NCBI RefSeq assembly: GCF_002854065.1
Contig: NZ_CP024147.1
DNA: 64,000 nucleotides
Origin: Escherichia coli
Lineage (GTDB): Bacteria; Pseudomonadota; Gammaproteobacteria; Enterobacterales; Enterobacteriaceae
Reading direction: 5' to 3' (one strand)
In this document: piece after piece, positions 2,233-62,292 of the stretch
How positions within the stretch are numbered: position 1 is the stretch's first letter
How the letters are laid out: the number at the start of each line of letters is the position of its first letter
Made by a program: the position numbers and the translations under genes
Notes under the pieces: model-generated
Database searches by the model: none
What the model was told of the DNA's origin: nothing
What the model saw: the letters and a program-made list of their open reading frames with translations, nothing else

Positions 2233-2710
2233 CTGAAGACGCTCTCTGAACGTTACAGGGTGATCAGTGAGATAAGACTGTTAATTATAAAGTAAACACT
2301 GAAAAGCAGAGTGTTTTATTTTTCATTCGCGCTGTGAATAAATAGGTGAAAGTTATAGTAGCTGTCTGAGGTTATATATCAAAAACACTCATTTAGACGG
2401 TCAATGAATCGTGAGAACACCAGATTGTTTAAAGAAGATTTATTATAGGAAATGTAAAGCTTTATTGAAGGTAACGGATGTTCTAGTTTTATCTCTTTTA
2501 AATTAAGAAAGTCACGGTGGGAGTTATAAAGTTCATAGGGGACTATTCCCAGTAAATCTGTAACTGCAATGCTATTAATGATTGTCAGCAAAGAGGAACC
2601 ACGAAATGAAATTTTGCGATTCATAAATCTCTCGTCTATTTCCATTTGAATATCATCAACCCCTGCTGATTTAGATATTAATTGGGTGAACTCTTCTGCC
2701 ATAATTTGTT

Positions 2711-2719
2711 CATAAGTGC
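2711..2719. repeat. IS1 target-site duplication, left copy (CATAAGTGC)
   Basis: The same 9-mer occurs immediately outside both IS1 ends. Confidence 0.9.
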
Positions 2720-2774
2720 GGTGATGCTGCCAACTTACTGATTTAGTGTATGATGGTGTTTTTGAGGTGCTCCA

Positions 2775-3050
2775 GTGGCTTCTGTTTCTATCAGCTGTCC
2801 CTCCTGTTCAGCTACTGACGGGGTGGTGCGTAACGGCAAAAGCACTGCCGGACATCAGCGCTATCTCTGCTCTCACTGCCGTAAAACATGGCAACTGCAG
2901 TTCACTTACACCGCTTCTCAACCCGGTACGCACCAGAAAATCATTGATATGGCCATGAATGGCGTTGGATGCCGGGCAACCGCCCGCATTATGGGCGTTG
3001 GCCTCAACACGATTTTCCGCCATTTAAAAAACTCAGGCCGCAGTCGGTAA
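2775..3050 (+). CDS. insA: IS1 InsA (transposition inhibitor / N-terminal part of the transposase)
   Basis: 91-aa ORF beginning [30 protein letters not shown], recognised as IS1 InsA. Confidence 0.95.
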
Positions 3051-3472
3051 CCTCGCGCATACAGCCGGGCAGTGACGTCATCGTCTGCGCGGAAATGGAC
3101 GAACAGTGGGGATACGTCGGGGCTAAATCGCGCCAGCGCTGGCTGTTTTACGCGTATGACAGGCTCCGGAAGACGGTTGTTGCGCACGTATTCGGTGAAC
3201 GCACTATGGCGACGCTGGGGCGTCTTATGAGCCTGCTGTCACCCTTTGACGTGGTGATATGGATGACGGATGGCTGGCCGCTGTATGAATCCCGCCTGAA
3301 GGGAAAGCTGCACGTAATCAGCAAGCGATATACGCAGCGAATTGAGCGGCATAACCTGAATCTGAGGCAGCACCTGGCACGGCTGGGACGGAAGTCGCTG
3401 TCGTTCTCAAAATCGGTGGAGCTGCATGACAAAGTCATCGGGCATTATCTGAACATAAAACACTATCAATAA
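2969..3472 (+). CDS. insB: IS1 InsB reading frame (expressed as an InsAB' fusion by -1 frameshift)
   Basis: 167-aa ORF in the -1 frame relative to insA, recognised as IS1 InsB. Confidence 0.9.
3026..3032 (+). promoter_or_regulatory. IS1 A6C slippery site for programmed -1 ribosomal frameshifting
   Basis: AAAAAAC heptamer within the insA/insB overlap. Confidence 0.7.
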
Positions 3473-3487
3473 GTTGGAGTCATTACC

Positions 3488-3496
3488 CATAAGTGC
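3488..3496. repeat. IS1 target-site duplication, right copy (CATAAGTGC)
   Basis: The same 9-mer occurs immediately outside both IS1 ends. Confidence 0.9.
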
Positions 3497-4268
3497 TATT
3501 GTCAGTAATTCGTGGATGCCTATTACTACAAATTAGAGTATTGCGAATCGTATGCAATGGCATGCAAATGACGGAACGGCTGATCACTGGCATTTGGGTG
3601 ATCACCAGATCGGCTTTGCGGTGAACCAACAGTTCTTCAGCATTCTCTGCTGACATGAGGATATCATGGCACTCAATCTCGACAGAGGAATCTTGTCGTA
3701 GGCAGCGGATCAGCATACTATTATTAGAGCAAGAAATGAGCTGAGGGCCGTGAATAATAAAGTTTTTCTTTAGTTCGGACTTATTGACTATATTAATTGT
3801 TTGTTCAAGGCCTCTGAGATTTTTCTCAAGATGGTGATGCAGATTTAACCCTGTTGTCGTCGGCGCGATACCTTTTCCTGAGCGAATGAATAAAGGGTCA
3901 TTAAATTGCGCACGTAAGCGTTGTAACGACTGGCTCACGGCTGATGGGGTGATATATAGTGATTCAGCAGCTTTGCTAATGCTTAAATGCTGGTAAATAC
4001 ACTCAAATATGACAAGAAGATTTAAGTCGAACTTTTTCAAGTCGTAGAGATTGGTCATACACTACTCCGGTTATATTTTTCTTCCATGATATATTCACTT
4101 AATCAATGTTTTTTTTGCGTATATATTTTTATTGGTTATGTTTTTTTGCTTAACTCAGGATTAAGTTTTTCTAAAATAGCACAGCCACTTAGGGCAGAGC
4201 GAGCAATTCATGCTTTTTTAGGATGGTTGAAAAGCAGGGATATAGTTCAACCATCCATGAATTACCTT

Positions 4269-5015
4269 TTATTTATTTCCCATAATGATATTAAGCGTTT
4301 TCTGATCGGGCAACCCCACGGCCTGTTGCAGCGTATTTTCCTTACTCATGTAATAGATAGCCGGAGTGACATTTGCCCCCAGATCGTCCATCAGTTTCTC
4401 ATTGTCACTTAACACTTTCATTTGCTCTGTACTTACGTTTGCAGGCACGTTTAGCTTAAGCTTGCCACCAGAGGCTTCATATTGTTGCCAGGTTTTTGCG
4501 GGATCTTTGGAGGCAAGAATTGCCGCGGCTGTCGCCGGACTTTCTGGTTTGATAACCCCAACCAACAATGTTCTCAACTGTACTTTGCCAGAATCTACCC
4601 ACGGGCGCGCCTGCTGCCAGAACTGTTTACAATATGGGCAGAACGGATCGGCGAAGACGTAGACAATGACCGGCGCATCTTTTTTACCGTCGAGGAGCCA
4701 GTGGGATTGTTCCATCCGTTGCCACATTTCGCGTCCGGCTGGTGCGTAAATTTCTTTTTCGATAAGTGTGTTACTCAGGTTTTCACCTTTCTCGTTGTAC
4801 ATGTAACCAGAGATAGCGTGCTTACCATCTGGAGTCAGGTAGATGGTGACGCCCATATCCTGATACTTTCCGAGATAACCTTTCATTCCTCCGGGGGCAT
4901 CGAACGCTTTGATGATCGTAATACCCTGTTTTTCAATCGCTTTTACTGGAGCAGGAAGTTCCTCTGCGAAGGCGATTGCAGGAAGCAGAGCCAGTAAAAG
5001 TATCTTTTTTAACAT
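4269..5015 (-). CDS. dsbG: Periplasmic disulfide isomerase/chaperone DsbG
   Basis: ORF 4269..5075; start placed at the internal ATG at 5015 ([17 protein letters not shown] signal peptide, preceded by AAGGA), giving 248 aa; thioredoxin-like CPYC motif present. Confidence 0.9.
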
Positions 5016-14364: not shown

Positions 14365-15897
14365 TTATTCCTTCACCTGATGCACAACATCGATCACCGA
14401 GCCATCGCGGTAACGCACAACGGCAACGACGCGGTCGGTGAATTCAATCGGCTGTGGTTCACCGGTCAACAGACGCGCACGTTCGCGCAGCCACTCAATG
14501 GAAACCACTTTAATGCCCGCTTCCTGCAGACGTTCTGCCAGTTCCGGACGTGCCGGGTTAACTGCGATACCGTGGTCTGTGACCAGAATATCGACACTGG
14601 AGCCTGGGGTGATGCAGGTCAGCACGTTATCCACCAGAGTCGGAATACGACCACGTACCAGCGGCGCGACGATGATGGAAAGCGCAGAGGCAATCGCGGT
14701 ATCGCAGTGACCACCGGAAGCACCACGCAGTACGCCGTCAGAGCCGGTCAGCACGTTAACGTTGAACTGGGTGTCAATTTCCAGCGCGCTCAGTACCACC
14801 ACGTCGAGACGATCAACCGATGCGCCTTTCGATCCCCAGTTAGCGTACTGGTTGGCGCTGATTTCGATGTGATTGGGGTTACGGGCCAGCGATTGCGCAG
14901 CATGGCTGTCAAAGCTCTGCACATCCAGCAGTTTGCGGATCAGACCTTTTTCGTGCAGGTCAACCATCGTCGCGGTAATACCGCCAAGGGCGAAGTCGGC
15001 GCGAATATCGCGGCTACGCATTTTGTCTTCCAGGAAACGGGTTACCGCCAGCGATGCGCCGCCGGTGCCGGTTTGCATGGAGAAACCTTCTTTGAAGTAG
15101 CCAGAGTTGACAATCACATCCGCAGCGCTACGGGCAATAAGCAGTTCGCGCGGGTTAGTGGTCATACGGGTCGCGCCAGCGCCGATTTTTGCAGCATCGC
15201 CAACGCGATCAACTTTGACGATCAAATCAACCTGATCTTGCTCAATGCTTGCCGGATTATGCGGATAAGGCAGCAGTTCTTCGGCAAGCATCACAACCTG
15301 TTTTGCGTTGTCGGCATCAACCATTGCATAGCCGAGGGAGCCGCAGCAGGCTTTACCGGTGTAGCCGTTGGCATTACCGAATTCATCACAGGACGGGACG
15401 CCGAGGAAAGCCACGTCGATATTCAGTTCGCCGCTCTGTACCAGATGCACACGATCGCCGTGAGAGTGGATCTGCACCGGTTCTGCCAGCAGACCACGGG
15501 AGATCTCTTCCGCCAGTGGACCACGCAGGCCGGAGGTATAAATGCGGGTAACCACGCCCTGGCGAATGTGTTCTACCAGCGGCGCATGGCAATCACTCAG
15601 GGAGCTGGATGCCAGGGTCAGGTTTTTAAAGCCCATCTTCGCGATGACGTCCATCACCATATTGACGGTCAGGTCACCGCCACGGAAAGCGTGATGGAAG
15701 GAAACCGTCATGCCGTCCTGTAAACCTGAGCGACGAATCGCTTCTTCCAGGTTGGCGCACAGTTTGCGATCGCGCGCTTTTTCAGCCTGGTAGGTTTGCT
15801 TTGGCGAGTTCTGGAAAGCGGCAAGATCGCATTCAGCGCGACGATTCCAGGCCGCTACCCGTTCTTGTCGTTGAGATTGTTCAATTTTCTGCGTCAT
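14365..15897 (-). CDS. citF: Citrate lyase alpha subunit (citrate CoA-transferase)
   Basis: ORF 14365..15939; start set at MTQKIEQSQ for 510 aa. Confidence 0.93.
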   Translation of the reverse strand: MTQKIEQSQRQERVAAWNRRAECDLAAFQNSPKQTYQAEKARDRKLCANLEEAIRRSGLQDGMTVSFHHAFRGGDLTVNMVMDVIAKMGFKNLTLASSSLSDCHAPLVEHIRQGVVTRIYTSGLRGPLAEEISRGLLAEPVQIHSHGDRVHLVQSGELNIDVAFLGVPSCDEFGNANGYTGKACCGSLGYAMVDADNAKQVVMLAEELLPYPHNPASIEQDQVDLIVKVDRVGDAAKIGAGATRMTTNPRELLIARSAADVIVNSGYFKEGFSMQTGTGGASLAVTRFLEDKMRSRDIRADFALGGITATMVDLHEKGLIRKLLDVQSFDSHAAQSLARNPNHIEISANQYANWGSKGASVDRLDVVVLSALEIDTQFNVNVLTGSDGVLRGASGGHCDTAIASALSIIVAPLVRGRIPTLVDNVLTCITPGSSVDILVTDHGIAVNPARPELAERLQEAGIKVVSIEWLRERARLLTGEPQPIEFTDRVVAVVRYRDGSVIDVVHQVKE

Positions 15898-25575: not shown

Positions 25576-26541
25576 TTACTTAACTTCCATCCCTTTCGCC
25601 TGCAAATCGGCGTGGTAAGAAGAGCGGACAAACGGACCGCATGCAGCATGGGTAAAGCCCATCGCCAGCGCTTCGGCTTTCATTTCGTCGAACTCATCCG
25701 GGCTAACGTAACGTTGAACCGGCAGGTGATGGCGGCTTGGCTGCAAATATTGCCCCAGCGTTAACATCGTCACACCATGACGGCGCAGGTCGCGCATTAC
25801 CTCAATAATTTCTTCATTGGTTTCACCCAGTCCCACCATCAGACCAGACTTGGTCGGGATTTCCGGATGTGCTTCTTTAAAGCGTTCCAGCAGCTTCAGC
25901 GACCAGTTGTAATCTGCACCAGGCCGTACCTGACGGTAAATACGCGGTACGTTTTCCAGGTTATGGTTGAACACATCTGGTGGCGTTGCAGTCAGAATAT
26001 CCAGAGCACGATCCATACGACCGCGGAAATCCGGCACCAGAGTTTCAATTTTGATTTGCGGGCTTTTTTCCCGAATGGCAGTAATGCAATCCGCAAAGTG
26101 CTGGGCACCGCCATCGCGCAGGTCATCACGGTCAACGGAGGTGATAACCACATAACGCAGCGCCATATCGGCAATGGTCTGCGCCAGTTTCACTGGCTCA
26201 TTGGCATCAGGAGCTACCGGCCGACCGTGGGCAACGTCACAGAACGGACAACGGCGGGTACAAATAGCGCCGAGGATCATAAACGTTGCTGTGCCGTGGT
26301 TGAAGCATTCCGCCAGGTTAGGGCAGGAGGCTTCCTCGCAGACAGAATGCAGGCCATTTTTGCGCATTGCGGCTTTGATGCCCTGGATACGTGTAGAGTC
26401 CGCTGGAAGCTTGATTTTCATCCATTCCGGCTTGCGCAGCAGGGCTTCGCGCTCTGTTGCCACGTTTTTAACCGGGATAAGGGCCATCTTATCGGCATCG
26501 CGGTATTTAACACCGCGTTCCATCACAATGGGTTTACTCAT
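25576..26541 (-). CDS. lipA: Lipoyl synthase (radical SAM)
   Basis: 321-aa ORF with cysteine motifs for two Fe-S clusters. Confidence 0.96.
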
Positions 26542-26749: not shown

Positions 26750-27702
26750 TCAAAATGCATTACGGATAACATCTATTACTCCGTGCAGGATGGGATCACG
26801 CAGGCTGAATTTGTTGTAGTGGATAGAGAAATCTATTTGCTCCTCATTTAAGGACGGAAAAGGCAGTTTTTCCAGCGGCCAGCAACGGCTAAACAGGTTA
26901 TAAAAACGGCTGGGAATAATCGCTAACATGTCACTGTTGGCAACCAGTGCAGCGATTGTCAAAATGTTGTAGCTGGTGAAGCTGATCTGCCGGTCCGGAA
27001 ACATCTCTTGAATTCTCTGCCGCAGACCGCTGAAATTTTGTCCTTCCGGTAACAGGAGTACATGTGCAGCGTTGTCGATAGTCTCTCTGTCATCTTCTAA
27101 AGAGAGTAGTGGATTTCCCTCGCGGCAAATTAACACCATATTGTCGGTGAACAGAACATGATGTTGCACCGTACGATTGGTGCAAAACATGTTATCGATG
27201 ATGAGATCGGTTTGAAACTGACTGAGTTGGTTTTCCGCGTCGCTGATGGGAGGGTTGCGCAGTAAAAGCTGCGGATAGTGAGTTTTAATCGCCCGATAAA
27301 TGACAGGAAGGACCAGGGCTCCGACCGAGGGGGTGGTCGCGATAGTTATCGTTCGTTGCTTATCATAGCTTCCTTCGATATCCAGCGCGCCAAGAATGGA
27401 TTCAAGGCCCTGACTGATATACTCATGTAGATGCATCGCAAATGCGGTAGGAGTGACACCCTGGCCTTTGCGAATAAACAATGGGTCAGGGATATAACGC
27501 GCAGTTTCTGTATAGACTGACTGATTGCCGAGGGGGTCAGATTAAGCACTTTCGCTGCATTAACGATCCCTTTATGTACATATACAGCTTCAAAAATAGT
27601 CAGAAGGTTAAGATCAATATTTCGTAAGGTTGTAAATATTTGTGGTTTACCTTCTGACGACTTTCTGCTTAAACAGGGTTCGATTTGATTATTACTATCC
27701 AC
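26750..27702 (-). pseudogene. ybeF: LysR-family transcriptional regulator split by an apparent 1-bp frameshift
   Basis: N-terminal HTH ORF (27346..27702) and C-terminal substrate-binding-domain ORF (26750..27481) are adjacent in different frames and together reconstitute one LysR-type protein; the frame changes near 27489-27496. Confidence 0.7.
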
Positions 27703-27961
27703 GCACTTACTCCAATTTTATTCATGGAAAAATAATATTTAAAAAAATTACAATAATCTTATGTCTAATTGGAACGGAACGCTTTTGCTCACCATAATCA
27801 ACTATTTCAATAAGTTAATCAATGGGGTGAGTTACGGAGCAAGGCGTAGCATCGCATTTCTGCAAGTGATAAAGAAAATATACAAACGCGAAGGAGATGT
27901 AAAGCATTAGCAGGTGTTATGAGTAATGACCCAGTGTAAATTGGGCCATTGAGGTATGAAA

Positions 27962-28603
27962 TTAAGCGGTAATATATTCGAAGTCAGGATTGTTTAGTAG
28001 CGCTAAAATATTTTCCAGTAAACGTGGTGCAATATTATTAGTCGTCGCTTCGGGTTTCCATTGTGATATTTTAGCCATTTCCATTCCGGCATACCCACAA
28101 GGATTAATACGTAAAAATGGTGAAAGATCCATATTGACGTTTAATGCCAGACCGTGGAATGAACAACCGCGTCGAATACGTAAACCCAGTGAGCAAATTT
28201 TCTTTTCCCCAACATAGACACCTGGCGCGTCAGCCCGAGGATGCGCTTCTATACCCAGTTCAGCCAGGGTATTCACCACTGTTTGCTCAAGCAAGGTCAC
28301 CAGTTCACGCACACCGAGTTTACGGCGTTTCAGGTTAAGCAATACATACATCACCTGTTGCCCCGGCCCGTGATAAGTCACCTGCCCACCGCGATCGCTC
28401 TGAATCACCGGAATATCACCCGGCATTAAAATGTGCTCCGCTTTTCCTGCTTGCCCTTGGGTGAATACCGGATAGTGCTCGACCAGCCAGATTTCATCAA
28501 GGGTACTATCATCGCGGGTATCGGTGAATTCATGCATAGCCTGGGAGATTGGCTCGTAAGGCTGAAGACCGAGCTGGCGGACAAGAATTTTATCCTGATA
28601 CAA
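27962..28603 (-). CDS. lipB: Octanoyltransferase (lipoate-protein ligase B)
   Basis: 213-aa ORF. Confidence 0.93.
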
Positions 28604-61520: not shown

Positions 61521-61555
61521 AAAAGCAAAAAGCTCGCCGAAGCGAGCTTTTTTAA
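61521..61555. terminator. Bidirectional rho-independent terminator (ubiF and the tRNA operon)
   Basis: Hairpin AGCTCGC-CGAA-GCGAGCT flanked by A-rich and T-rich runs. Confidence 0.65.
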
Positions 61556-61557
61556 TG

Positions 61558-61632
61558 TGGCTGGGGTACGAGGATTCGAACCTCGGAATGCCGGAATCAG
61601 AATCCGGTGCCTTACCGCTTGGCGATACCCCA
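61558..61632 (-). tRNA. glnX: tRNA-Gln (anticodon CUG)
   Basis: 75-nt reverse complement of the tRNA-Gln sequence, including the CCA end; anticodon loop ATTCTGATT. Confidence 0.95.
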
Positions 61633-61669
61633 ACTGGGTGCACTTACAAGGTAAGCGTCTTGAATAAAT

Positions 61670-61744
61670 TGGCTGGGGTACGAGGATTCGAACCTCGGAA
61701 TGCCGGAATCAGAATCCGGTGCCTTACCGCTTGGCGATACCCCA
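61670..61744 (-). tRNA. glnV: tRNA-Gln (anticodon CUG)
   Basis: Identical copy of the 61558-61632 sequence. Confidence 0.95.
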
Positions 61745-61791
61745 ACAAATTGGTTTTGAATTTGCCGAACATATTCGACACATTCAGAATT

Positions 61792-61868
61792 TGGTGGCTA
61801 CGACGGGATTCGAACCTGTGACCCCATCATTATGAGTGATGTGCTCTAACCAACTGAGCTACGTAGCC
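61792..61868 (-). tRNA. metU: tRNA-Met (elongator, anticodon CAU)
   Basis: 77-nt reverse complement of elongator tRNA-Met, with CCA. Confidence 0.95.
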
Positions 61869-61883
61869 AGATTGTTTCTTCGA

Positions 61884-61958
61884 TGGCTGGGGTACCTGGA
61901 TTCGAACCAGGGAATGCCGGTATCAAAAACCGGTGCCTTACCGCTTGGCGATACCCCA
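61884..61958 (-). tRNA. glnW: tRNA-Gln (anticodon UUG)
   Basis: 75-nt tRNA-Gln with anticodon loop TTTTTGATA. Confidence 0.95.
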
Positions 61959-61992
61959 ATAACCGGGCGGTGAACCGCTTACTCGAAGAAGA

Positions 61993-62067
61993 TGGCTGGG
62001 GTACCTGGATTCGAACCAGGGAATGCCGGTATCAAAAACCGGTGCCTTACCGCTTGGCGATACCCCA
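61993..62067 (-). tRNA. glnU: tRNA-Gln (anticodon UUG)
   Basis: Identical copy of the 61884-61958 sequence. Confidence 0.95.
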
Positions 62068-62090
62068 TCCGTACAACGCTTTCTGGTGAA

Positions 62091-62175
62091 TGGTGCGGGA
62101 GGCGAGACTTGAACTCGCACACCTTGCGGCGCCAGAACCTAAATCTGGTGCGTCTACCAATTTCGCCACTCCCGC
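62091..62175 (-). tRNA. leuW: tRNA-Leu (anticodon UAG)
   Basis: 85-nt type-II tRNA with a long variable arm, with CCA. Confidence 0.93.
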
Positions 62176-62183
62176 AAAAAAGA

Positions 62184-62260
62184 TGGTGGCTACGACGGGA
62201 TTCGAACCTGTGACCCCATCATTATGAGTGATGTGCTCTAACCAACTGAGCTACGTAGCC
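62184..62260 (-). tRNA. metT: tRNA-Met (elongator, anticodon CAU)
   Basis: Identical to the metU copy. Confidence 0.95.
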
Positions 62261-62292
62261 ATCTTTTTTTCGCGATACCTTATCGGCGTTGC

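Follow-up and report, generated by a model that had tools for sequence, protein, structure and literature searches.

Results

Organization of the ybeF locus

The window analysed here is the whole 64-kb stretch of E. coli DNA, and the locus under study lies on its minus strand at 26750-27702. This interval holds a disrupted ybeF, very probably a pseudogene, which is 953 nt long as against 954 nt (317 codons and a stop) in intact alleles. lipB (27962-28603, minus strand) lies upstream of it and lipA (25576-26541, minus strand) lies downstream after a gap of 208 nt, and both genes are intact as judged from the list of open reading frames and from annotated relatives. In enterobacteria ybeF is known to occupy this place between the two lip genes (PMC4398509). 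The lipB-ybeF-lipA order, with all three genes on the minus strand, is the same in K-12 and in four other genomes, so that the locus occupies the position by which the YbeF family is recognised. In strain 100416, CUWW06, O157:H7 TR01 and K-12 MG1655 the same interval is a single 954-nt gene for a 317-aa protein annotated as 'YbeF family transcriptional regulator', and the start and the stop of the gene in the window coincide with the annotation in all four.

Instead of one gene, two minus-strand open reading frames are present in the window. The 5' ORF (27346-27702) has 118 codons and begins at a GTG, which is the annotated start of ybeF in other genomes; it encodes 70 native YbeF residues, after which 48 residues are read out of frame up to a stop. 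The 3' ORF (26750-27481) has 243 codons counted from a TTG, is in the original frame of ybeF and encodes the LysR substrate-binding domain. The two are in different frames and overlap at 27346-27481, exactly as the first-pass annotation of this DNA had described them. Just upstream of the ybeF start, promoter-like hexamers (TTTAAA and TAAAAT with a 17-nt spacer, 27715-27743, minus strand) were recognised by their match to the consensus. The region scanned contained 8 sites of this type where 3.9 would be expected, which makes them weak evidence for a ybeF promoter, and the scan for promoters and terminators around ybeF gave nothing beyond weak consensus matches.

A one-base deletion at codon 71

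Alignment with intact alleles showed a single gap. The coding strand of intact ybeF reads ATATTCCC where the window reads ATATCCC, and the codons GTT ATA TTC CCT GAC of the intact gene become GTT ATA TCC CTG AC in the window. Codon 71 (TTC, Phe71) is thus short of one T on the coding strand (TT to T). On the plus strand this is seen as a single A at 27492, within GGGATAT, at the place where other E. coli have AA; the frameshift site at 27491-27493 falls inside the interval 27480-27500 that had been pointed out earlier. The missing base is the sole difference from strain 100416 across 1,101 nt, and insertion of one T gives exactly the coding sequence of the 317-aa YbeF protein WP_000378030.1. 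The earlier suggestion that ybeF lacks one T in this motif is therefore borne out, and so is the K-12 sequence that had been cited in its support, as YbeF of MG1655 does read ...KLRVIFPDPLFIRKGQGV... at this place. The repaired window allele differs from that of K-12 by 18 nt and by 3 of 317 residues. This low number of residue changes relative to nucleotide changes makes intact ybeF look constrained and functional.

Distribution of the deleted allele

Complete E. coli genomes were searched with an 81-nt query that has the deletion at its centre, and 5,006 out of 5,426 gave a match; the RefSeq complete-genome collection that was searched does not contain the source genome of the window. The deleted form was present in 0 of the 5,006 matching genomes, since no match went above 98.8% identity, the value that results from one gap. 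Comparison with intact ybeF of other E. coli genomes, proposed earlier as a check, has thus shown that intact genes differ from the window at this base. A 26-mer spanning the deletion had no match in JGI metagenome contigs, and the exact 118-aa and 243-aa ORF products were not found in a collection of 15 billion proteins.

The C-terminal part of the gene gave a different result in the same protein collection, where the exact 228-aa product of an ATG-started C-terminal ORF (P0001) is recorded on 23 contigs. Gene callers predict this 228-aa protein on other disrupted ybeF alleles. Ten of the contigs were retrieved, and one of them, JAPQBK010000029.1 (58,456 bp) of the NCBI draft GCA_035821435.1, carries the same deletion. 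Of the assemblies compared, only GCA_035821435.1 shares with the window the loss of one T from codon 71 (TT to T).

Evidence for a probably real deletion

The first-pass annotation had left two explanations side by side, a recent pseudogene or a sequencing error. If the missing base were an error of sequencing or assembly in a short TT/AA run, ybeF would actually be intact. The absence of the allele from the 5,006 matching complete genomes and from the JGI metagenome contigs is in line with an error, as is the fact that the gene is otherwise the same as the intact allele. Single-base indels are, moreover, the typical error of long-read assemblies. On the other hand, a run of two nucleotides is not a typical site of homopolymer errors, and the identical deletion stands in the independent assembly GCA_035821435.1. 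Over 6,687 nt that include the deletion, JAPQBK010000029.1 matches the window with 100% identity. This contig breaks off after 75 nt of the very IS1 element that is found in citR of the window, and its other end, by extrapolation, lies in a tRNA repeat array near 61.9 kb. A short-read assembly made de novo would be expected to break at such repeats. The tRNA array itself (Gln, Met and Leu genes in the CUWW06 annotation) is located at 61554-62261 of the window and gives internal repeat matches.

The draft is also distinguishable from the window. One SNP was found in the 17.3 kb compared; it lies at window position 4907, where GCA_035821435.1 keeps the ancestral T. In the protein collection, the exact CitF (AUJ95256.1) and CitC (AUJ95259.1) of the window occur on only one contig, which is evidently the window's own source. 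GCA_035821435.1 is therefore a different, closely related genome. The two assemblies could be cultures of one strain, in which case the base would still be confirmed, though its spread in nature would not.

The close relatives give the same answer. The closest complete relative is the E. coli wastewater isolate CUWW06 (NZ_CP182139.1), with 99.98% identity. This identity, and the presence of only one IS element in the 64 kb of the window, speak against a Shigella origin, to which the IS1 and the pseudogene might have pointed. Over 60.5 kb the window differs from it by 9 SNPs, one IS1 insertion and one indel, the latter being that in ybeF. As there is no other indel over this length, the assembly is not indel-prone. 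Because of the second assembly and this lack of further indels, an error is considered quite improbable, and of the two explanations left by the earlier annotation it is the pseudogene that is favoured.

TT is present in all four close relatives (CUWW06, strain 100416 and the genomes L019 and L020), which shows that the deletion is the derived state. As the remainder of the gene does not differ from an intact allele and these four relatives are intact, the deletion should be recent. The reading frame is broken in comparison with the orthologues and the remaining sequence is undegraded, as is characteristic of a recent pseudogene. Taken together, ybeF in this lineage is very probably a genuine and recently formed pseudogene, a null allele that would have arisen by a spontaneous 1-bp deletion.

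Predicted effect on the protein

Intact YbeF contains the Pfam domains HTH_1 (PF00126) at residues 31-89 and LysR_substrate (PF03466) at residues 116-316. Among solved structures, the closest relative of YbeF is a LysR regulator (PDB entries 1uth and 1utb) that we take to be DntR; it aligns over residues 24-284. In the window the two domains are encoded in different frames, so that they cannot be assigned to one polypeptide as is usual for a LysR-type regulator. The 3' ORF product has LysR_substrate at its residues 42-242. In the 118-aa product HTH_1 matches residues 31-68 only, i.e. profile positions 1-38 of 60. The 5' ORF had been taken for a LysR helix-turn-helix domain; HTH_1 is indeed present in it, but the domain is incomplete and is carried by 70 native residues. 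The NCBIfam model NF008554.1 ('YbeF family', an equivalog) has a curated cut-off of 277 bits. The 118-aa product scored 129.9 bits over model positions 1-76 and falls below this cut-off, whereas the repaired protein scored 613 bits over positions 1-317 of 317. Thus, the locus is the ybeF gene by descent and encodes no member of the YbeF family.

The likely course of events is as follows. In a narrow sub-lineage of E. coli, a spontaneous 1-bp deletion (TT to T) would have occurred in codon 71 (Phe). Translation from the normal GTG start would still give 70 native residues, including the helices of the helix-turn-helix. The frame would then shift where the Pfam HTH_1 match stops, which is approximately the start of the wing if the general architecture of the LysR family is followed, and 48 unrelated residues would be added up to the stop at 27346. 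The predicted product is without the last third of HTH_1, the stretch linking it to the effector domain and the entire effector-binding domain. LysR-type regulators generally need the DNA-binding and the effector domain in one chain, and a LysR chain without wing, linker and effector domain cannot oligomerise or regulate. The truncated YbeF should likewise fail to do so, which would make this a null allele, and on the basis of domain architecture we infer loss of function of ybeF. Neither the TTG at 27481 nor the ATG at 27436 is preceded by a Shine-Dalgarno-like sequence, and the 3' ORF is probably an untranslated, leftover frame. A harmful polar effect on lipA is unlikely, since lipA starts 208 nt downstream and stays intact in genomes that are missing most of ybeF.

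It could be argued that a functional product persists, either by -1 ribosomal frameshifting or transcriptional slippage, or as two working polypeptides, one with the HTH and one with the effector fragment. Both halves do remain as open reading frames, and the 228-aa 3' part is predicted by gene callers on other disrupted alleles. However, the sequence CGC GTT ATA TCC CTG is without an X XXY YYZ slippery heptamer and without a long A/T run, and more than 4,300 genomes encode YbeF in one frame. The break lies within HTH_1 and not between the domains, the candidate restart codons are without a Shine-Dalgarno-like sequence, and both domains are generally understood to be needed in one chain by LysR-type regulators. 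A product that is still functional is thus regarded as extremely improbable. Of the specific candidates, programmed frameshifting or slippage was rejected, with no slippery motif in GTTATATCCCTGACC, single-frame orthologues and the shift in none of the 5,006 genomes, and a functional split gene was rejected on the break inside HTH_1 and the lack of an evident ribosome-binding site.

Recurrent loss of ybeF in E. coli

Complete E. coli genomes quite often have an incomplete ybeF. In 1,056 of 5,423 (about 19%) the alignment covers less than 80% of ybeF. Three of these were sampled (clone D i2, an E2348/69 derivative and Ecol_656), and all three contain degraded remnants of ybeF, annotated by PGAP as pseudogenes that are 'frameshifted; incomplete; missing C-terminus'. 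Each has a 3' deletion of roughly 400 nt, and two of the three have an internal deletion of 195 nt in addition. Public assemblies also contain ybeF alleles with the nonsense change Q81*, with one base lost or gained in a C5 run, or with IS1 inserted in the gene. Thus, ybeF is a dispensable gene that is often lost, and the allele in the window is one more ordinary case of a recurrent event.

Disruption of citR and changes in the citrate-lyase genes

The paralogue of ybeF, citR (ybdO), which encodes a LysR-type repressor, is also disrupted in the window. An IS1 element of 768 bp with InsA and InsB ORFs (2720-3487) splits the gene into two minus-strand fragments, at 3483-4058 and 2379-2702, and is flanked by 9-bp target duplications, CATAAGTGC, at 2711-2719 and 3488-3496. 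The insertion is common to the window and the draft GCA_035821435.1. Hence, both of the paralogous regulators that flank the cit cluster, ybeF and citR, are very probably inactivated in this lineage. IS1 was also observed in or immediately beside citR, at varied positions, in several unrelated complete genomes (L018, L029, L030 and L031), and 205 genomes matched window positions 2300-4100 over at least 80% of this interval. This suggests that the citR region is a recurrent target of IS1.

In comparison with the four close relatives, the SNPs private to the window are at 15285 and 15455 (citF), 18125 (citC) and 4907 (dsbG). In the region compared, the private changes that followed the split from GCA_035821435.1 are dsbG T37A, citF T205A, citF G148D and citC E20K. 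Each of these is a nonsynonymous change, and the three outside dsbG fall in a 2.8-kb stretch of citrate-lyase genes. The two citF variants each occur singly in unrelated E. coli, in strains that are about 1.2% divergent.

Discussion

The present study describes an allele of ybeF in which a single missing base separates a LysR-type gene into two frames. YbeF is a poorly characterised LysR-type regulator with a loosely defined function, for which three ChIP-exo sites have been reported (PMC9068703). In E. coli BW25113, deletion of ybeF or of its paralogue citR (ybdO) lowered the expression of lrhA and raised that of the FlhDC regulon (PMC9068703). As regards annotation, ybeF in this genome should be recorded as one frameshifted pseudogene and not as two LysR-like genes. 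Many independent losses of ybeF argue that E. coli can do without this little-characterised regulator in many niches.

A further possibility is that selection, and not drift, favoured a real deletion in ybeF. Together with the IS1 insertion in citR, the deletion would then belong to a remodelling, specific to this lineage, of the regulatory circuit of citrate lyase and flagella. The IS1 insertion in citR (2720-3487) is shared by the window and the draft, YbeF and CitR are paralogues in K-12 for which either deletion has the same direction of effect on lrhA and on the FlhDC regulon (PMC9068703), and three of the four private SNPs are the nonsynonymous changes citF T205A, citF G148D and citC E20K. 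Against this stands the finding that disruptions of ybeF, and likewise of citR, are frequent in unrelated E. coli, as would be the case for dispensable genes and for a region targeted by IS1. The clustering of the SNPs was spotted post hoc and concerns four SNPs, and the citF variants exist singly in unrelated strains. Selection for the deletion is thus an unlikely reading. The fuller scheme, in which the ybeF frameshift and the citR insertion would be functionally linked, selected lesions that were followed by two citF substitutions and one citC substitution, is likewise unlikely. If it were true, it would provide natural genetic evidence for a place of YbeF in the citrate-lyase and LrhA-FlhDC circuit, which is so far only suggested by the transcriptomes of K-12 knockouts. 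In any case the lineage is very probably a natural ybeF citR double mutant, which could be of use for probing the proposed link of these regulators to citrate lyase and to flagellar expression.

The preferred reading, that of a recent and ordinary loss of ybeF, can be set against the alleles and genes that are already known. K-12 YbeF (b0629) has in common with the window the lipB-ybeF-lipA locus, the GTG start and the stop, and after repair the two proteins differ at 3 of 317 residues. In the window, however, the frame breaks at codon 71 and no ORF reaches the cut-off of 277 bits. The remnants in clone D i2, in the E2348/69-derived strain and in Ecol_656 result from inactivation of the same gene, but they are old and heavily degraded, with about 94% identity, whereas the allele in the window is fresh and departs from a perfect gene by a single 1-bp deletion. 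The sporadic null alleles (Q81*, the C5 run and IS1) are likewise independent, recent, single-event lesions in the first third of the gene and leave the same 228-aa C-terminal ORF, although their sites and mutation types differ from that of the window. Finally, CitR (YbdO) is a LysR-type protein about 30% identical to YbeF, encoded beside the cit operon in the same conserved neighbourhood, and the effect of its knockout in K-12 on the lrhA/FlhDC transcriptome resembles that of YbeF (PMC9068703). CitR is inactivated in the window too, but by the insertion of IS1 and not by a frameshift.
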